A stretch of 64,000 bases of DNA from an uncultured virus (IMG/VR IMGVR_UViG_3300033821_000010) (Duplodnaviria; Heunggongvirae; Uroviricota; Caudoviricetes): the IMG/VR virus record IMGVR_UViG_3300033821_000010; one strand, written 5' to 3'. Positions 3,001-56,134 of the stretch are shown here, piece by piece. A model generated the notes under the pieces. That model was not told where the DNA came from. It saw nothing but the letters and a program-made list of their open reading frames with translations, and did not search any database. The stretch's first letter is position 1. Every line of letters begins with the position of its first letter. The position numbers and the translations under genes were made by a program.

Positions 3001-4435
3001 GTACACCATTTGTAATAGGAACCTGAGTTACATCTACATAAGCTCCCTGAAATCCTTGCATCCCTTGGAAGCCTTGTGAACCACCACCTTGCGAACCTGA
3101 TATTTGTAGAACTGTATAAGAAGTCAAGTCGTTTGATAATGTTCCAACACTCCCGCTTGGAGAAGCTTGCGGACCAGACAGAATATCAAAATTTTGTCCT
3201 GATGGTGTTGCTGTTAAATCTTGATTATATTTTATAATTTGTACTGTTTGTGACCTATCAGGCTGTACATCACTTGTTGCCATGACTAAAGGCGGAATAG
3301 TGTCACGTGCAGCCCACACTTTTAGAAAATTCGGGTCATCTGAACTTGGACCTATAATTGACATACAACGTGCGCCAAAAACGCCTTTAACGAATCCTTT
3401 ACTCGTGCCTGTATAACATCCAATTGTTTCTCCAATAGTTATCGAACCACCATCGTTGATACTCATATCCACAAGAGCAAGGAATCTGCCAGCCGGGTAA
3501 GACGCATAACCAGTTCTTGGTGTTGCAACTGGAATAATATAGTTTTTGTGAATATAAAAATACGGAAAGCCATCATACAAATCAGATGCGTCTGCTGGAC
3601 TTGTGAGAATTAAATCACCAGTTGAATTATATCCGCTGCTACTACCCCTCTCAGGCACCAACGGCATTCCTTCTAATAATTCAGAACCACCATTCCGTTC
3701 ATAAACAACAGTTCCAAGTGATTCTGGGTACGGCGGTATGTCTTCCCAATAAGTCTCTGGATAAGCAAGTTGCGGAAAATTAAAAACAGGAATGAAATCC
3801 AGAGCCGAATCTGTGTGTCCAGTGCCAGCAATACCACCGCCAAAAACAACGAATTTTTGCAAACTACCCGTGGTATAACAAAGCATCCGAATCAAACCTT
3901 TAGGAACTTCTTCATCCCATTGTTTTGTCTTCGCATTGTATTGGGAATATACTTGTTCTGCAACATATCCATAATCATAAGGATTCCAAACTTCATCTCC
4001 ATCATCGTTAAGGCTTTTGAAGTATGTCCAAAACCACATAGTAAATGTATTAGAGGTTTGGTCATAAGTAATTCGTGGTTGATGAACTTCATAAAAAGGA
4101 ACGATTGACGATTCATCTTCGCTGATATAACAAACTATATTTGTTCCATTGGCCATTTTTTGATTGTTTAGGCGCGACATTAAAAGCATGTACTTGCCGT
4201 CAGAACTGTATGGAGGGGTTGTTGGAAGGTTGGTTTGATAGCGAGTAAATTGCAGACTACCTTCTGTGGTTTCTTCTGAACAATAATATATTTGTTTATT
4301 TAGGCCATCCTCATATAATTCAATATCGCCATATACGAAGTCACTACGGAAGCACAGAATATCCCTATCTTTAAGCACAACAATAGAGGGTGCATGACCT
4401 ATATGATACCATTCTGATATGTTAGAATCAGGCAT
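1..4435 (-). CDS. Collagen-like tail fibre / virion fibre protein (3'-truncated by window edge, >1470 aa)
   Basis: Missing from the ORF track because no stop lies in the window. ATG at 4435 (MPDSNISEWYHIG...). The same frame reads GFQGDGPQGFQGPG at 2-58 and FPGGTELTFNLDGEDPVVID at 841-900 (spot-checked, not every codon). G-X-Y (GPQ/GFQ/GVQ) tracts alternate with repeated globular modules; it lies downstream of the hub/TMP genes. Confidence 0.8.
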   Translation of the reverse strand, partial: MPDSNISEWYHIGHAPSIVVLKDRDILCFRSDFVYGDIELYEDGLNKQIYYCSEETTEGSLQFTRYQTNLPTTPPYSSDGKYMLLMSRLNNQKMANGTNIVCYISEDESSIVPFYEVHQPRITYDQTSNTFTMWFWTYFKSLNDDGDEVWNPYDYGYVAEQVYSQYNAKTKQWDEEVPKGLIRMLCYTTGSLQKFVVFGGGIAGTGHTDSALDFIPVFNFPQLAYPETYWEDIPPYPESLGTVVYERNGGSELLEGMPLVPERGSSSGYNSTGDLILTSPADASDLYDGFPYFYIHKNYIIPVATPRTGYASYPAGRFLALVDMSINDGGSITIGETIGCYTGTSKGFVKGVFGARCMSIIGPSSDDPNFLKVWAARDTIPPLVMATSDVQPDRSQTVQIIKYNQDLTATPSGQNFDILSGPQASPSGSVGTLSNDLTSYTVLQISGSQGGGSQGFQGMQGFQGAYVDVTQVPITNGVQTNYYYSDQELEEDPFLTFNLYNGPQGFQGPQGDAIVVGVTEIINGVQVNMYYASDPEGDPIATFDVYNGPQGSQGIQGFQGVNAYTITTESWTTPAIGGATQVSFENCNWMVPDQIIYIGFGAGYYQVGSVDSDILATIVNLGYPGNADEGTVETLYAGVSPGGLIGPQGIQGFQGFQGVNAYTVTTDDFNAPDIGNSIPLTFENCSWMVPTQVIYVAGAGYYQVDSVTSDTDAAITNLGYPGNADSGAYIDIGAGVSPAGLIGPQGIQGFQGIQGINAYTVTTEEFNVPAIDSSQTVLFENCSWMVSGQVIFIEGAGYYQVASVDLDGTNAFVTNLGYPGNADEGTLIGTNAGTSPGGLIGPQGIQGFQGFQGFQGTGPTAAHTTASFLQPDVDLDVAVEVDSTAMFADGQIIYIENGGYYKILAVTSDTELDALNLGYPGNADPSTNILAGSLVTAGGLMGPQGIQGVQGDSIDIVVTPIENGFQTSFYYQSDTEHENPIEQFDLYNGPQGFDGVQGFQGNDGFQGPQGDDGVQGPYWVPSTEPLPDNAGVQMIWTLPDSDENQVIFDLYNGPQGFDGVQGFDGVQGFDGVQGFDGVQGFDGVQGFDGVQGFDGVQGFDGFQGNDGVQGFDGNQGLDGPQGDYWTLTNEPFEGGNELTWNMNGEDPVVIDVYDGPQGKEGVQGFDGPQGAYWTLTAEPFPGGTELTFNLDGEDPVVIDVYDGVQGNDGVQGNDGVQGFDGVQGFDGFQGYDGVQGFDGFQGNDGVQGFDGNQGFDGVQGFDGVQGFDGFQGFQGPQGAGTDVPFLITNDSGSNTCSGLEYADGFNQAATSGAISGVTILNGQNIHMQLGLTAPAYLNGGIRTVLHKVGAEKFVDLGNDEIILGIITQVDNPWLTDGTSTCLVDCYPNGYSDNTGKYSDTLHPFNAIPPNVGDQIAVFRHNGTIDSTYRNWAICGGSQGSQGFQGFQGIQGFQGPQGFQGFQGDGPQGFQGPGNSGGA
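1171..1274. repeat. Perfect 18-nt tandem repeat (5 full copies + partial) encoding GVQGFD
   Basis: Unit catcaaagccttgtacgc at 1171, 1189, 1207, 1225 and 1243, partial at 1261; in frame within the fibre gene. Confidence 0.95.
1900..2760 (-). repeat. Three tandem copies of a ~95-codon module in the fibre protein
   Basis: Each copy reads NAYT(I/V)TT...FENC(S/N)WMV..Q.I.I..AGYYQV.SV...NLGYPGNAD.G...G.SP.GLIGPQG; approximately 1900-2170, 2200-2460 and 2490-2760. Confidence 0.85.
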
Positions 4436-4441
4436 AATCTC

Positions 4442-5479
4442 TTACCTATATAAAATTCTGACTCTGATTTTGATACCAATATCCCCATTATTATACAACT
4501 TTAATGACGTTTTATCTGGCACATTTCTATCCAAATTGTAATAACCAACTGCTATTTGACCAATATTAGGAAAACTATATTTACTTATTCCTTTAGTCGC
4601 TTCAACAACAAGATGTGCTTCTACCGATATGATTTGTTCGGCATTCGGCACAGTGATTAGAATACCTCCTGTACCACCACTATCAGTATCAAACATAAAG
4701 ACTTTACTTTCAAAGGCTTCGTTGATAGCACCAATAATAGTTTGATTTGCAGTTACAAGTTTAATATTTATATCATCGCTTAAAGTCACAGAAGTTCGCT
4801 TGTCTTGGAGTACCATTTCATTTTTGGATTCTATGGTTGCTTTGCCTGTTCTCTTATCATCTACTGTTATGGATGCTTCAGTCAAACTGTCATCTTCACC
4901 GATGTTTACACCTAGATGCTTTCTGACAGTTAATTCATCTTGGAACAAAGACTCCCCATGAGGATTGGTTTTGTCGCTAGTGTGTAAAGCGATATCAGAG
5001 CCATATATTTTACCGTCAGGATTTGTATTTAACTCAATTTTATCATTGGATAAATCAGCAATAGCCATCAACAAAACGGCGGGGTTATTGGTCTTTGGTG
5101 ACAACGTGCTTAACACTCTAAAAGCCGTTTCATTTTCAAACAGGTCTACAGTAAAACTCACATACAAATAGTAAATACCACCTTTTTTAAGGTTATCCCA
5201 CACGATTGATTCTTTAGCTTCTACATAACCACCACCAACAATACCACAAAGCGCAGAAGTAGTTTCGTTGTGATATAAACTCACAGAACAAGTGCCGTCA
5301 TGGTTATCTTTAATCTCAAAAATTCCTTCCTCAAAGACAGCACATTTTACACCCTTAGAAGCAGCCAATAGCTGATTTTCAATGATGTTCATACGTCTTG
5401 TTTCTTCGATTTCCTCAATCTTGTCTTTTTTACAAGGAATGGGAATACCGAAAAATTCAGTTCTTTTTCCGTAACTCAT
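4442..5479 (-). CDS. Putative baseplate/fibre-associated structural protein
   Basis: 345-aa ORF between the hub-like gene and the fibre gene; contains a 'TANQTIIGAINE' motif typical of phage fibre proteins. Confidence 0.5.
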   Translation of the reverse strand: MSYGKRTEFFGIPIPCKKDKIEEIEETRRMNIIENQLLAASKGVKCAVFEEGIFEIKDNHDGTCSVSLYHNETTSALCGIVGGGYVEAKESIVWDNLKKGGIYYLYVSFTVDLFENETAFRVLSTLSPKTNNPAVLLMAIADLSNDKIELNTNPDGKIYGSDIALHTSDKTNPHGESLFQDELTVRKHLGVNIGEDDSLTEASITVDDKRTGKATIESKNEMVLQDKRTSVTLSDDINIKLVTANQTIIGAINEAFESKVFMFDTDSGGTGGILITVPNAEQIISVEAHLVVEATKGISKYSFPNIGQIAVGYYNLDRNVPDKTSLKLYNNGDIGIKIRVRILYR

Positions 5480-18083: not shown

Positions 18084-19004
18084 CTACGCTATCGGACCAT
18101 ATATCTGATACGACAAATTAATAGGTACTACATCACTTTGTCCTACAATATCATCTGCAAAATTATTCCATTGGCAAAAACCTAAATTTAAAGAACCAGC
18201 ACCTACAGCCGTTGTAATATTTGTTTCATAGGTTATTATTGCTTCTCCTTCAACTTCCCCACTTAGATTTACTATTACTGCACTTCCTGTAAACTCTCCT
18301 GTCATTGGCCCAAAAATCACATAAGACGGTGCGCGGGGACTGCTAGACGCCAGACAAAGTGATTGTTTTGCTATATCCTGATTAAAAGTCACTGTCCAAT
18401 TTAGCAGTTTTAAGTTGTCCCCCAATCCCCCGATATTCGTTTTCCAAAATGGTATTGGCGTCGTATTAAAATAAGCCGTTTTGTTCAATGTAGGAATCGG
18501 CAAACCACGTAAAGCATTCTTTCCATCAGTATCATCAATAACCCCACCCCTATTCTGAATATAGTTATCTTTAATAGTGGTATACTCTCCTCCAAGGCCA
18601 GAAACCTTAGTCCAACTCATCAAACTCATACTACTTGTAACTGCCGAACCTGCACCAGCCGCTTCCATTGAAATCGAAGTCCAATAACACTCTTGTAAAT
18701 GTTGTTGGTTTGATATCTGATTCCCTCTTGTCTGATAAACGATATTTTTGAAACCAGTTCGATTTATTAACCAACCTTTCCAACTATTGAAATATGTAGG
18801 TGTTGCTTCTACTGATATTGAACCATCATAATTAGGCCAATCATACGAATGTGGATAACCAATACCTGGACTGCCTGTTACACTGGTACTTCCCTTATAT
18901 GCCGAATTTGATTCTAGCCTTGTGCTTTGAAAGGGTGCTGAAATTGACGTTACTAAAACCAAGTTTCCATCAATTTCAGCGAATCCCTCATAGCCAACTG
19001 CCAT
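18084..19004 (-). CDS. Putative tail tube-like protein (paralog 2)
   Basis: Starts MAVGYEGFA; shares PIPFWKTN and GP...TG motifs with the intron-split paralog. Confidence 0.6.
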   Translation of the reverse strand: MAVGYEGFAEIDGNLVLVTSISAPFQSTRLESNSAYKGSTSVTGSPGIGYPHSYDWPNYDGSISVEATPTYFNSWKGWLINRTGFKNIVYQTRGNQISNQQHLQECYWTSISMEAAGAGSAVTSSMSLMSWTKVSGLGGEYTTIKDNYIQNRGGVIDDTDGKNALRGLPIPTLNKTAYFNTTPIPFWKTNIGGLGDNLKLLNWTVTFNQDIAKQSLCLASSSPRAPSYVIFGPMTGEFTGSAVIVNLSGEVEGEAIITYETNITTAVGAGSLNLGFCQWNNFADDIVGQSDVVPINLSYQIYGPIA

Positions 19005-19021: not shown

Positions 19022-20521
19022 TTACATCGCTCCCATGTACAATGGTGGATAAAGTGTATCTACTCCCGGTACTAAGCTTGGTGGTGGAAGAGAACCATCA
19101 TTATTAGCAGTTCTGCCACCCATACCTTTGAAGTTATAGGTACGGGTTGTTACTTCGCTCTGACCTTTCAAGCTGAAGTCATCTGTTTCTACCACAACTG
19201 CTGGCAAATCAATGTTGACGTAAGTTTGAATAGCTGGAGGAGGACCGCTAGTAGTAATTTGAATTCTGAATGCTGAATTCTCTGCCGTTCTTGGCAAATA
19301 ACCTGTTGGTGGGAATACAGGGTCAAACACGCCGTCTGTGTGGAATAATGTCGCATTACCAGTAGCTTCAATCGGTCCCATCAAAATTGCCGTTGGATAT
19401 CTTACACCGCTACAAGTATAGAGTGGCTGTGTATTATTGGTTAAATCAATACCCCAATCAGTAGCTTCTGTACCAGCCTGCCAAGGTGTCGGAGTACCCA
19501 CCCCACCCCAATTACCCGGAGTCCAATTACTTGTATTACCCGCTCCAGGCGTAATATCATAAAGTCTAGCATTTGTCTTCCAGAACGGAATTGGGTTTGT
19601 GTTAGTCTGGCCAGGATTCAAAGGATTCAAACCACGAATAGCAGGTGGAGTTGAACCAATATAACCCGTTCTTTGATTGATATACGGCAGCAACAACGGG
19701 TCAAGAGCAGGATAAGTAATAATACGGTAAATGGCAATAACGTTAATAGAACTTAACACAAATGAACCCTGTGACGTATTGAAATTCATTGACTGCACCC
19801 ACGCACCACAATTACTGTTTACATCAAAATGCGAGCCGACGCCAGGACCGTATGGATTTGGAGTAAGTGTTGTAGGGGTATTTAAATCACTCAAAGTACC
19901 CACCCAATAATGATAGAGTGATTGACCATCTGGAGAAATATCCAATGAGCGTGGCCATGCTCTCTGTTCAATAGCCCAATCACGTATCGCATTCCATATG
20001 CCTTGCGATGCTTGAAGTTCAATATCAATATTACCTTCATAGCGCAAAGCGGAATCAGCGTAATGTGCCGACATCGGAGCATTGTACCAACCAGCGCCCC
20101 ATACTGAAGACGAATAGATTGGTTCAAGAGCGATGTTTACACCGGCTGTTGTGCAAAGCAATATCAGCGGATTTGAAGGTGAATCGGGTAAGCCTCCATA
20201 AGCTCCACCGCCACTTCCTAGTGTGTATAGTCTCGCAAAACCTTGGTCATTCTGTTGCTTCGGTTTTTCAACCTACTAACCACTTTTATGTGGCGGGGAA
20301 ACCTCTTCGGATTTCCCTCTCCCGCTTCTTTTTGTTATACGGGAGTTCAGACTGTCGCATATAGTTAAAAAGCTACTTGTTCGGGTAAACTTTTCGCCTT
20401 TAACTATCCCTCTCATTCAGTCGTTCAGGCTACCTTTCGGCTTGCCCCTTGTTATCCACTGCTGGATTTCCAAGTCAATTAGAGAAGGTTGAATGGGACA
20501 ACTTGTTTATCCCATACCCAT
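19022..20521 (-). CDS. Putative major tail tube protein, spliced (exon 1 20509-20521, exon 2 19022-20247; 412 aa)
   Basis: AGGAGG RBS at 20531-20536, then ATG GGT ATG GGA T | intron | AC CAA GGT TTT GCG gives MGMGYQGFARL. This is in frame with the 19022-20161 ORF and matches the paralog start MAVGYEGFAEI. Confidence 0.8.
20248..20508 (-). ncRNA. Group I self-splicing intron, 261 nt, no internal ORF
   Basis: 5' exon ends in U; exon GGGAU pairs with intron GUCCC (P1 with U-G); terminal omega-G at 20248; P3 CCUUCUC/GAGAGGG; P7 GACUG (20418-20422)/CAGUC (20350-20354) within R-like GAACGACUGA and S-like AUGCGACAGUCU elements; removal restores the reading frame. Confidence 0.88.
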
Positions 20522-20536
20522 TTGATTGTTCCTCCT

Positions 20537-21346
20537 TTATACTCTGTTCTGTTTGTTCATAAACTCTTTAAATATTTTCCTCTTTCTTTCCAAACAGAGG
20601 TAACTCCCATCACTATACAAAATATCAAATAAATGTAATAACGTCTCTCTCTTGTTGGTGTTCAAAAAACCAAAATCCTTTTTTTCTCCATCAAAATACC
20701 AAGGTATGTACAAATTGAAATGCTCTAACAAAGTTTTCTGGACATAGGACAAACTCTTAGGATGTCCATAAAGACTGAAAACAAATTTACCATTTTTTCT
20801 CTTTTTGCTAATGCTTCCGTCTCCGTCAAACCAACCACGCAACACTTGAATAAACGCATTTTCACTTAAATATGGCACTATAAATCCGTCCGACTTCCTT
20901 CTTACCAAATTAAACTTTTGTAATAACTCTCTCGCATATTTTGCAGGAATAGTAATCCTGTACATCTTTCTAGTTTTCCTTTTATGTACGACACATCCTA
21001 ATCGTTTTGCAATGTCATCTAAAATCTGTCTATCCTTCAACTCCAATTGAACCTGCTTCTTCTTTGTTACGTTCCCGTCTGCAAATAACAAACCCAAAAC
21101 GTATGCCATAAATGAATTTAATCCATGCGCTTCACTTATAACGTTATTACCTCCTGACAAAAGCTTCCTACGTCTGATGAACTTCTTAGCCTTATTTACT
21201 TGAGTAATACTAAATCTTCTATGACCGCCCGTTGTTCTAATGGCTTTTAATGCACCTTTAAAAGCCAAACGTCTTATTTTGTCAATAGATAGACCACTGA
21301 GTTTTGCTAGATTGGAAGTTGTTAAAGTCGCAACTCCCATTCCCAT
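20537..21346 (-). CDS. Free-standing LAGLIDADG homing endonuclease with N-terminal MerR/IS607-type HTH
   Basis: Two motifs, AYVLGLLFADG and VLRGWFDGDGSI; C-terminal LERK; N-terminal 'IRRLAFKGALKAIRTTGGHRRF' HTH. Confidence 0.85.
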   Translation of the reverse strand: MGMGVATLTTSNLAKLSGLSIDKIRRLAFKGALKAIRTTGGHRRFSITQVNKAKKFIRRRKLLSGGNNVISEAHGLNSFMAYVLGLLFADGNVTKKKQVQLELKDRQILDDIAKRLGCVVHKRKTRKMYRITIPAKYARELLQKFNLVRRKSDGFIVPYLSENAFIQVLRGWFDGDGSISKKRKNGKFVFSLYGHPKSLSYVQKTLLEHFNLYIPWYFDGEKKDFGFLNTNKRETLLHLFDILYSDGSYLCLERKRKIFKEFMNKQNRV

Positions 21347-21371
21347 TTGTATATCCTCCTAGTTCAACCTT

Positions 21372-21398
21372 CTATAGCTACCTACATATCAAAAAATT
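21372..21398 (-). promoter_or_regulatory. Putative phage late-promoter motif (TTTTTTGATA-N10-TATAG)
   Basis: Same motif recurs upstream of several structural-region genes (see findings). Confidence 0.45.
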
Positions 21399-21422
21399 AT
21401 GACACATTCCACTTGCCGTTCT

Positions 21423-22388
21423 CTAATATGGTTTTATTAAAAAATTATCACAAAGAATCCTGTCCAAGCGCATAAAAGTTTGCTCACCTGTAAATTGCTG
21501 TCCTTGGCCTCTTAGAAAATCCCCTATTCTGCTAAGATAGCCTTGATATTCACTCTCTGGCATTTTTTCACAGTAGTCCATGATTTTCACCAAATCATAG
21601 TCAAATTTGCGCATGTCTATAAAAAGCGACGGGTCTATCATCTGCTCAATATTCCAAGCACCGGCATATATGGGCACCGCAGCAGCCAAAAACCCATGAA
21701 ATATCTTCTCTGTCATATAATTCACTGAGTAGTAATCATCATGCGTATTCTCAGTGGCGAACACAAATTTGGTCTTGGTCATCAAACCTCTGGCGTCTGT
21801 GAATTTGATTGGTGAAGACCGTTGACCATTCATATAGATTTCACCACCATAATTTTTATCTTCACGTGACCAGCCATAACCATAATATTTAAAACTTCGA
21901 TTAGCAGCCGCCTTTACAATTTCGTCTCTCATCCATCCAAAATAACAAGGTGGTTGGCCTTGTTTCGGCGGCTTCTTTCCTAACACCATTCCAAACGTGA
22001 AGTCCACTTTTTTGTTTTTGACAGCCTCTTCATAAATAGACAGTTCTTTAGTCCACCAGCCAAAAATTGATAGAGCTTTCGTATTCTGCTGTTTACAATA
22101 ATTTGGGTTAAAGTGCAAACGCAAATTGAATCGTTTATCAGTATCGTAGATGCAATACTGAGGCTGTAGATAGTAGAATGATTCTGCAAACCATGAAACT
22201 TGTGGACATCGTGCACCATACAAATACTCATTGCCGTTTGTGGTCAGCCAAATATCTTCAACATCCCAACCGTTTCCACCATAGCCATTTACCCATTCAT
22301 AATTCAAAGGTAAGGGTTTGATGTTGTTAAGTTCTAACTCCGATTCTTGTTGACTCCACGACCTCCAAAACACTTTTCTTTTCATCAA
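21423..22388 (-). CDS. Glycosyltransferase family 10 (fucosyltransferase-like)
   Basis: GT10 signature KFVFATEN...NYMTEKIFHGFLAAAVPIYAG. Confidence 0.8.
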   Translation of the reverse strand: MMKRKVFWRSWSQQESELELNNIKPLPLNYEWVNGYGGNGWDVEDIWLTTNGNEYLYGARCPQVSWFAESFYYLQPQYCIYDTDKRFNLRLHFNPNYCKQQNTKALSIFGWWTKELSIYEEAVKNKKVDFTFGMVLGKKPPKQGQPPCYFGWMRDEIVKAAANRSFKYYGYGWSREDKNYGGEIYMNGQRSSPIKFTDARGLMTKTKFVFATENTHDDYYSVNYMTEKIFHGFLAAAVPIYAGAWNIEQMIDPSLFIDMRKFDYDLVKIMDYCEKMPESEYQGYLSRIGDFLRGQGQQFTGEQTFMRLDRILCDNFLIKPY

Positions 22389-49494: not shown

Positions 49495-49571
49495 TGGTAG
49501 CGGGGATGGGATTCGAACCCACACTTGAATGATTTTAAGTCATTTTTCTCTGCCAGTTGGAATACCCCGCC
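49495..49571 (-). tRNA. trnL: tRNA-Leu (anticodon UAA), short variable loop, encoded CCA
   Basis: GGCGGGG...AATGA-CTTAAAA-TCATT-CAAGT-GTGGG-TTCGAAT-CCCAT-CCCCGCT-A-CCA, 77 nt. Confidence 0.9.
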
Positions 49572-56055: not shown

Positions 56056-56134
56056 TGGCATCTCCGGTTGGATTTGAACCAACGACCTCCGAATTAGAAG
56101 TTCGGTACTCTTATCCAGGCTGAGTTACGGAGAC
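56056..56134 (-). tRNA. trnR: tRNA-Arg (anticodon UCU), encoded CCA
   Basis: GTCTCCG...CCGAA-CTTCTAA-TTCGG-AGGTC-GTTGG-TTCAAAT-CCAAC-CGGAGAT-G-CCA, 79 nt. Confidence 0.92.

Follow-up and report, generated by a model that had tools for sequence, protein, structure and literature searches.

What kind of element would place a homing endonuclease gene between a structural gene's own translation start and an intron in that same gene? The question is raised by a 64,000-nucleotide (nt) stretch of DNA from an uncultured virus of the class Caudoviricetes (IMG/VR record IMGVR_UViG_3300033821_000010; the window, below, means this whole stretch), in which a free-standing LAGLIDADG endonuclease gene and the gene that follows it, likely encoding a tail tube, open with near-identical ribosome-binding sites (RBS) and codons, and in which the second gene is interrupted by a predicted group I intron just behind these codons. 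We consider it probable, at odds of about two in three, that the locus carries a two-part mobile element of the collaborative-homing type, which sits at codon 4/5 in the gene for the major tail tube of this uncultured siphophage; cleavage by the enzyme is the step that we infer. A homing endonuclease beside an intron is a known kind of arrangement, and what is new here is the duplicated and captured gene start, the alleles that pin down the insertion, and a large undetected intron family.

All genes of the window are encoded on the minus strand, where the order is a GT10-like glycosyltransferase gene, a 76-nt intergenic region, the endonuclease open reading frame (ORF), tube exon 1, the intron and tube exon 2. 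The endonuclease gene starts with AGGAGG at 21360..21355, an 8-nt spacer and ATG GGA ATG GGA at 21346..21335, followed by GTT; the tube gene starts with AGGAGG at 20536..20531, a 9-nt spacer and ATG GGT ATG GGA T at 20521..20509 (ATGGGTATGGGAT), directly after which an in-frame TAA opens the intron. The RBS, spacer and first four codons (MGMG) that now form the endonuclease start (21335..21360) are called copy A below, and the RBS, spacer and exon 1 of the tube gene (20509..20536) copy B. A first-pass annotation of this DNA had noted that both genes start with AGGAGG and near-identical MGMG codons and that the endonuclease stop adjoins the tube RBS, and both observations are borne out by direct reading of the minus strand, the stop TAA lying at 20539..20537 and abutting the AGGAGG at 20536..20531. 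The 12-mer ATGGGNATGGGA has exactly two matches on the two strands of the window, namely the two adjacent gene starts; a third is obtained only with one mismatch. Compared over 36 nt, copies A and B are identical at 22 positions. The annotation had further placed the end of their similarity exactly at the intron site. The boundary after codon 4 stands, but the exactness does not: the copies part 1 nt before the insertion point of the window intron, which lies in codon 5 after its first base, and their divergence point is the exact insertion point of a sister intron subtype.

This arrangement is not an assembly artefact, because identical contigs from three other studies bridge its junctions. 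The contigs are free of differences, come from three DNA runs (none marked as a possible source) and cover all three joints: 21029-21575 spans the glycosyltransferase gene, copy A and the endonuclease, 20458-20964 the endonuclease end, copy B, exon 1 and the intron, and 20114-20264 the intron and exon 2. In total, fourteen public runs contain part or all of 20100..21500, 13 of them labelled as peat metagenomes and one as a sediment metagenome. In four runs, neither the endonuclease nor the intron is skipped by any contig, and an empty or spliced form was thus not seen there; as contigs drop rare variants, this does not speak for the absence of such forms.

The history of the insertion can be read from relatives with an empty site. 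When metagenome contigs were scanned with the tube alignment, 80 loci were obtained; one of them, L139, is 78% identical to the window in the tube protein and has its genes in the same order, the GT10 gene included. The tube gene of L139 is uninterrupted and comes directly after the intergenic region, with neither endonuclease nor intron. With blastn, positions 1-3791 of L139 align with window 25123-21336 at 81.8% identity and positions 3869-5109 with window 20175-18937 at 79.2%; with short words, 85/95 positions match over 21480..21386 and 26/30 over 21365..21336. The intergenic block of L139 and its 'GAACTAGGAGGA..ATGGG.ATGGG' match the DNA before and at the endonuclease start, including the first 11 nt of that gene, and the start of exon 2 shares a 17/17 block with L139. 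Because the homology runs through the endonuclease RBS and resumes in exon 2, copy A is, judged by this colinearity, the resident tube start. Relative to L139, a block of 1087 nt (21334..20248), comprising the endonuclease body and stop, a second RBS, a second exon 1 and the intron, is inserted at the codon 4/5 boundary, with one T, at 20509, that may be either resident or incoming.

The left breakpoint falls at 21336/21335, and the sister pairs L157/L002 and L180/L009 break likewise; in 3/3 filled/empty pairs of the class in which the endonuclease is fused to a tube start, the left edge of the insertion lies within 1 nt of the intron site. In the pair L171/L014, the break lies at the end of the upstream gene. 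The first-pass annotation had proposed that the endonuclease captured the promoter, RBS and first four codons of the tube gene, which then regenerated its 5' end, and had suggested a comparison with relatives lacking either part. In L139, with its empty site, the breakpoints are as start capture predicts. Capture of the RBS and the four codons is upheld by the breakpoints against L139 and in L157/L002 and L180/L009, and regeneration by the position of the present tube RBS and exon 1, which lie within the inserted block and match L139 over just 13 nt. For the promoter, the finding amounts to a conserved intergenic block (21347..21422, orthologous to the region 5' of the L139 tube gene) that overlaps a single weak sigma-70-like match (21425..21396); matches of this kind are no more numerous than in shuffled sequence.

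The layout recurs in other phages. To describe it, endonuclease types in the slot upstream of the tube gene were defined by tblastn with the endonuclease against the tube loci and by Pfam scans. Type A (LAGLIDADG_3 plus a helix-turn-helix, HTH) occurs in the window, L006, L017, L157, L171, L180, L182 (at a contig end), L187 and L201, with 36-43% identity to the window enzyme and 45-67% among the others; type B (LAGLIDADG_2) occurs in L012 and L203, and type C, 22-27% identical, in L179, L181 and L195. Four type A loci (the window, L157, L180 and L187) have a fused start, their N-termini reading MGMG-VATL.., MGMG-EGIAIGDF.., MGMG-IKIGEF.. and MGMGMG-IKIGEF.., respectively, and every fused locus has a second RBS and exon 1 downstream. 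The start repeat comprises 25 identical nt in L180 (28/36 overall) and 30/36 in L187; between genomes the values are 18-27/36. At least three other lineages share the duplicated start, so that the cassette may already have contained it on arrival. On an endonuclease tree of 12 rows, type A is monophyletic (99/99) and the window enzyme is sister to all its other members, fused and unfused forms fall into two moderately supported groups (85/88 and 82/85), and type C is a separate clade (100/99). In L201 (2379-3700), the type A enzyme is split into an HTH ORF and a LAGLIDADG ORF beside an extra ORF of 176 amino acids (aa), and is probably a decaying copy. As a separate observation, codon 2 of the tube gene is GGC in all three type C loci and in 4/45 intron-less, endonuclease-free loci (Fisher p 0.002, uncorrected for relatedness). 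This may be an immunity substitution or just kinship; its reading as an immunity mark near a distant endonuclease is weakened by the four further GGC loci that have no endonuclease.

Co-occurrence of enzyme and intron was assessed on 98 tube loci (97 fetched plus the window), of which 18 were duplicates of another contig and 2 had no locatable start. A locus was judged when its contig extended at least about 840 nt beyond the tube start on the upstream side, or when it showed an endonuclease or the end of the conserved upstream gene; five intron-bearing and six intron-less loci were too short and were dropped. Among the 19 judgeable tube genes with the intron, nine have a type A endonuclease, two type B, none type C and eight none, and among the 48 without it, the corresponding numbers are zero, zero, three and 45. 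For type A versus intron, Fisher's test gives p = 2e-6 on rows that are related. Relatedness was taken up on a tube-protein tree of 59 rows, which excludes rows shorter than 200 aa and lacks, among others, L017, L199 and L203. On this tree 8 changes of state are counted for type A and 15 for the intron, and across 8 independent contrasts that differ in type A the intron changes in parallel in 6-8 and in the opposite direction in none (median p 0.0078). The block is highly mobile between lineages of the tube gene, and no type A gene was seen beside an intron-less one (0/48). The co-occurrence on which the first-pass annotation had staked its reading is thus observed, with type A beside 9/19 intron-bearing and 0/48 intron-less genes and 6-8 of 8 contrasts concordant with none opposed.

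The two type B loci are of interest in their own right. In L203 (150-1300), the LAGLIDADG_2 gene is preceded by exon 1 and the 5'-terminal ~105 nt of the intron, up to and including P6; the first 77 nt of this repeat match the copy before the full intron at 74/77 positions, giving a window-like repeat whose junction lies within the intron, at J6/7. L012 (3038-3923) and L017 (2953-3925) have flanks about 94% identical around endonucleases of different families, and the LAGLIDADG_2 ORF of L012 retains the first 11-12 codons of the L017-type gene, with its right breakpoint inside the intron. From the sequences, this difference looks like endonuclease turnover with start capture.

The endonuclease gene itself (20537..21346) is intact and encodes 269 aa. 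It matches Pfam PF14528 LAGLIDADG_3 at 41.6 bits against a cut-off of 22.5 and PHROG 4645 'endonuclease' at 9.7e-27. The first LAGLIDADG motif, AYVLGLLFADGNV, occupies residues 81-93 (21068..21106) with the acidic D90, and the second, VLRGWFDGDGSI, residues 168-179 (20810..20845) with D176; their cores read ..LGLLFADGNV and ..RGWFDGDGSI. In an alignment of 16 sequences, A81, Y82, L84, G85 and G91 are invariant and D90 nearly so in the first motif, as are R170, G171 and D174-G177 in the second; K151 is also conserved. The window ORF is full length and keeps all 17 invariant positions of the family. The AlphaFold model has a mean predicted local distance difference test score (pLDDT) of 88.4 and a predicted template modelling score (pTM) of 0.77, and places D90 at the end of helix 78-90 and D176 at the end of helix 162-176. 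The top 50 Foldseek matches of this model are LAGLIDADG enzymes, maturases, inteins or WhiA, the best being 2dch (1.1e-08); I-Tsp061I, the bI3 maturase, I-AniI, WhiA, PI-PfuI and I-DmoI are the best structural matches. We are confident that the modelled fold is the pseudo-dimeric alpha-beta-beta-alpha-beta-beta-alpha fold of a monomeric, two-motif LAGLIDADG enzyme. At the N-terminus, residues about 7-50 (21197..21328) resemble a MerR/excisionase-type HTH (Pfam MerR 1.3e-05, HTH_17 2.7e-04, both below gathering); the match is above cut-off in the homologues of L006, L171 and L187, and a PDB sequence search matches 8jbs to residues 17-59. By sequence this is presumably an extra DNA-binding module.

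The endonuclease is an optional gene, present and absent at one locus in the pairs window/L139, L157/L002, L180/L009 and L171/L014. A protein-based locus search of viral contigs with the endonuclease gave no relative, and the relatives described here came from tblastn within tube-gene loci. Outside the tube locus, a word index of 5.8 billion proteins returned nine distant relatives with at most 33% identity, and 44 GenBank phage records match at 25-31%, over the core only.

The second component is an ORF-less intron of 261 nt (20248..20508), assigned to group I by its fold, a covariance model and covariation, with its terminal G at 20248; no minus-strand ORF of at least 40 aa was found inside it. 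P1 is formed by 20515..20509 pairing with the guide sequence 20499..20493, with a U-G pair at the 5' splice site. The RNA folds better than its shuffles (z = -4.66), and a structure built by hand contains P1, P3, P4, P5, P6/P6a, P7, P8, a P9 region of four hairpins and the terminal G. Our own covariance model, made from six sequences and this hand structure with the pseudoknotted P7 omitted, gave 92 matches (E up to 1e-3) in 75 sources, including one in the window at 299.5 bits; none was found in intron-less tube loci. The matches lie in many different genes, often with 2-3 intron copies per locus. In the resulting alignment, which was fitted to our own model and favours the structure, 94.7% of the cells pair, against 65.2% in shuffled sequences and 39-47% with slid partners, the slid controls retaining relatedness. 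Changes on both sides occur in 58/62 pairs, and for P1 in 7/7; one P7 pair is Watson-Crick in 88/89 distinct instances (A-U 55, G-C 22, U-A 11). A pattern of the 3' core matches at least 121 viral contigs, again in many different genes (loci L018-L138). The window intron is a member of a widespread lineage of phage group I introns missed by current Rfam models. Two subtypes occur at the tube site, 1 nt apart: a long one, after the first base of codon 5, in the window, L006, L011, L017, L171, L187 and L201, and a short one, between codons 4 and 5, in L007, L012, L157, L180, L182 and L203.

The interrupted gene continues in exon 2 (19022..20247), delimited by translation and intron-less homologues. 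The predicted spliced product has 412 aa and begins MGMGYQGFARLY. Among 17 protein relatives of exon 2 in viral contigs, 12 are uninterrupted and start ATGGGNATGGGNTAYCARGG (MGMGYQGF) or a variant (MAMGY/MSMGY, then MGF), and the remaining five carry an alignable insert at the same place. The spliced junction ..ATGGGAT|ACCAAGG.. given by the first-pass annotation agrees with the starts of these 12 and with L139. Removal of the intron restores the frame of the uninterrupted homologues, and in the pair L141/L142 the intron is the sole difference. PHROG 290 'minor tail protein' is a weak match, PF18906 Phage_tube_2 is found in 3/13 family members (best E 2.4e-4), and the nearest Atlas clusters are phage tail-tube proteins, which is a lead only. 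The low-confidence model of the protein (pLDDT 48.6) matches the P74-26 tail tube (8ed0, 5.3e-08) in Foldseek, and also T5/DT57C pb6, tail-tip proteins and a major tail protein from an Acinetobacter phage. The consistency of these Foldseek matches, together with the Pfam hits and the Atlas lead rather than the quality of the model, makes it likely, not proven, that the host gene encodes a tail tube of the double-domain T5/P74-26 type. The tube profile had no meaningful match among PDB sequences, tblastn with the tube protein found no homologue in 50,697 GenBank phage records, and a DNA search of the region against GenBank phages gave no match.

We hypothesize that the two parts work together as follows. 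In a mixed infection, the enzyme would recognise and cut the conserved intron-less sequence around ATGGGNATGGGN/TAYCARGG. The donor genome would be immune because its target is interrupted in both places, behind copy A by the endonuclease body and behind copy B by the intron. Repair from the donor would use exon 2 as right arm and copy A (or the upstream gene) as left arm, so that endonuclease and intron would be copied together; as the block brings its own RBS and a second exon 1, the tube gene could still be translated after splicing. Pairing with copy B, or recombination between copies A and B, would give immune intron-only alleles. The two copies would thus predict both intron-only products and scar-free loss of the endonuclease, and the eight intron-only loci, with their ordinary intergenic regions, fit. 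The left edge may be the outcome of one-sided homologous repair, in which exon 2 served as the right arm and the left end was joined in frame by an illegitimate or microhomology event, and would fit normal repair with copy A as a short left arm equally well.

A more ambitious version of this proposal, which we regard as tentative and would place somewhat below even odds, holds that the duplicated start is design rather than scar: the endonuclease would sit in its own cut site, borrow the late promoter, RBS and four codons of the tube gene, and carry a spare RBS, exon 1 and intron to heal and shield its host gene. If so, the exon-1 repeat would be a portable left arm that allows entry into genomes with other upstream neighbours (here a glycosyltransferase gene), and the endonuclease could be lost without a scar, leaving immune intron-only alleles. 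Given the start-capture junctions in L012 and L203, collaborative-homing pairs, and later intron-encoded endonucleases, may quite generally originate from one-sided repair whose left join is illegitimate and in frame.

Several observations count against a homing pair of this kind. Eight of the 19 intron-bearing genes (L007, L011, L141, L147, L152, L192, L199 and L202) have no endonuclease, and the intron therefore does not depend on the enzyme; intron-only alleles at this frequency are also as expected of immune survivors. The endonucleases of L017, L006 and L171, three of the seven full-length relatives, begin at or over the stop of the upstream gene and lack MGMG, and in L201, compared with L162, the endonuclease and the extra ORF lie upstream of the resident intergenic region and the intron is a separate insertion; insertion at the intron site is therefore not the sole layout. 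The endonuclease tree is compatible with a fused start that is ancestral or that arose twice. Type C genes (L179:2248-2925, L181:3100-3963 and L195:7-585) occupy the slot beside intron-less tube genes. The proposed target, the intron insertion site, is deduced solely from the position of the junction and from co-occurrence, and as a left homology arm copy A offers about 25-36 nt, which is short for homologous repair. For the intron, Rfam 15 gave no group I match in the window or in the 521-nt region 20100..20620, at gathering or with E up to 10, and no family at gathering score in 20 loci containing introns of the same family; because the structural tests support a group I intron, we read this as a sensitivity gap of the models. 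Splicing is predicted from sequence and was not seen as RNA. One RNA-library run contains a single contig of 185 nt (21087..21271, identical, depth 87), which lies within the endonuclease gene and leaves the splice junctions uncovered; the run shares only 0.09 of sampled words and nothing else of 1.9 kb, and the contig, which may derive from RNA or from carried-over DNA, is not counted as evidence of expression.

Unfused layouts such as those of L017, L006, L171 and L201, in which the endonuclease adjoins the upstream gene or precedes the intergenic region, would be natural if the enzyme cut elsewhere nearby (deeper in the tube gene, between the genes or in the upstream gene) and co-conversion of the intron merely reflected its place in the repair tract, as for T4 mobE and the nrdB intron (PMC2790892). 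The mismatch between endonuclease phylogeny and intron subtype points the same way: L187 has the long intron and yet groups with the short-intron L157 and L180, and the two parts therefore also move apart. Co-conversion of this kind would not be expected to place the left edge within 1 nt of the intron site in all three fused-class pairs, nor would linkage alone keep type A from intron-less genes (0/48) if the intron-less site were harmless, and we regard it as unlikely.

The window enzyme could alternatively be a relic that arrived by homing and is now inactive or without targets, the duplicated start being a neutral scar. The homing cycle predicts decay after fixation (PMC3984707), L201 shows such decay, and with 36-43% identity between the window enzyme and its nearest relatives no recent transfer is visible. 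A full-length ORF that retains all 17 invariant positions and is modelled at pLDDT 88.4, together with empty and presumably cleavable alleles in close relatives (L139), makes a fossil improbable.

One-sided co-occurrence is also what would be expected of a helper, and the LAGLIDADG protein might serve mainly as a maturase for the neighbouring intron and be kept only beside it; the bI3 maturase and the bifunctional I-AniI are among the closest folds of known structure, and a bacterial LAGLIDADG maturase is cited in PMC3984707. Such a role sits poorly with the eight of 19 intron-bearing genes that lack the enzyme, and with an intron family present in at least 121 viral contigs among which the type A enzyme is found only in tube-gene loci. 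Moreover, the acidic residues at both catalytic positions and K151 are conserved, the added MerR-type domain points to a DNA target, and presence and absence among sister phages is the pattern of a mobile gene; we consider a primarily maturase function very improbable. Finally, a shared MGMG start produced by convergence or gene conversion for efficient translation, rather than left by insertion, is barely credible: the copies in L180 and L187 are indeed more alike within the genome (28/36 and 30/36) than between genomes (18-27/36), which gene conversion could bring about, but those in the window (22/36) are not, the intergenic context of copy A is colinear with the empty site of L139, the exact 12-mer occurs nowhere else in the 64 kb, and the comparisons with L139, L002 and L009 already contradict it.

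A collaborative-homing pair at the tube gene is our preferred reading. Such homing is known from a handful of phage systems, two of which are described as a free-standing endonuclease and an ORF-less intron converging on one site (PMC3984707). The usual enzymes of phage introns belong to the GIY-YIG, HNH, PD-(D/E)xK and EDxHD families (PMC3984707). In cyanophage S-PM2, the psbA group I intron and the free-standing F-CphI make up such a pair (Zeng, Bonocora and Shub 2009; PMC3984707, PMC6083498). The parallel to that pair drawn by the first-pass annotation holds in that a free-standing endonuclease lies beside a gene with an ORF-less intron and is co-inherited with it across genomes. It differs in that the window enzyme is LAGLIDADG plus HTH rather than Endo VII-like, the host gene is structural, the endonuclease is fused in frame to a duplicated tube RBS and four codons within its target site, and cleavage is here deduced. 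In T3/T7-like phages, the DNA polymerase gene has an intron insertion site that is reportedly the target of a free-standing endonuclease (Bonocora and Shub 2009). That system resembles the present one in an endonuclease pre-adapted to the intron site, a proposed step to mobile introns, and differs in endonuclease family and gene; we know of no shared-start duplication in it.

The T3/T7-like arrangement is mentioned in a 2023 survey, which describes the origin of the collaborative-homing arrangement as unclear (PMC10448857). The same source reports a T5orf172 endonuclease gene beside the N-terminal exon of the large terminase gene in Vibrio phage ICP1 and calls it collaborative homing (PMC10448857). 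As in the window, the endonuclease stands beside a very short first exon and not in the intron; the ICP1 enzyme is GIY-YIG-like, and no empty-site comparison of start capture was found in the available part of that account (PMC10448857). The T4 mobE/nrdB case is similar in that a free-standing enzyme mobilises a neighbouring intron without a working endonuclease, and differs in that mobE is of the HNH family, the nrdB intron has a defunct ORF and there is no fusion to the host start (PMC2790892). Splitting of nrdA by mobE in Aeromonas phage Aeh1 (PMC3045599) and 'fractured genes' with split inteins (PMC2677866) likewise have an endonuclease inside a coding region and new expression signals for the downstream part. 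There, the protein pieces must reassemble, whereas the window has a duplicated four-codon stub and an intron, and no intein or docking domains. Group I introns in virion genes are also known from Twort orf142, later found to be the tail-tube gene (PMC11878797), and from capsid and tail genes of Cluster J mycobacteriophages (PMC3706429). The window intron is of another lineage, undetected by Rfam, and no adjacent LAGLIDADG partner was found in the available parts of those accounts (PMC11878797, PMC3706429). A literature search for the phrase 'free-standing LAGLIDADG' returned organelle genomes only and no phages, and, judged from titles and abstract openings, no description of a LAGLIDADG/intron pair in a phage tail-tube gene was found.

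The locus therefore provides natural before-and-after alleles, in several independent lineages, of an endonuclease and an intron inserted at the intron site with capture of the host translation start, and these filled and empty alleles make the origin of the collaborative-homing arrangement testable. They would also extend the phenomenon to LAGLIDADG enzymes in phages, and the large intron family undetected by Rfam 15 matters for the annotation of split phage genes.

Some features of the surroundings deserve mention. The GT10-like (fucosyltransferase-like) gene upstream of the endonuclease (21423..22388, Pfam PF00852) lies between virion genes in the window and in L139 (2739-3686) only; most other relatives checked have a conserved upstream gene just before the tube gene or its endonuclease. 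Downstream, the gene at 18084..19004 begins MAVGYEGF and is a paralogue of the tube gene, and the same pair occurs in most relatives checked. Long tblastn matches in L009 and L014 had been taken for further introns; this was rejected, as they represent the downstream tube paralogue. Two tRNA genes are also encoded on the minus strand, at 49498..49571 and 56059..56134 (Rfam 55.8 and 63.5 bits, respectively).

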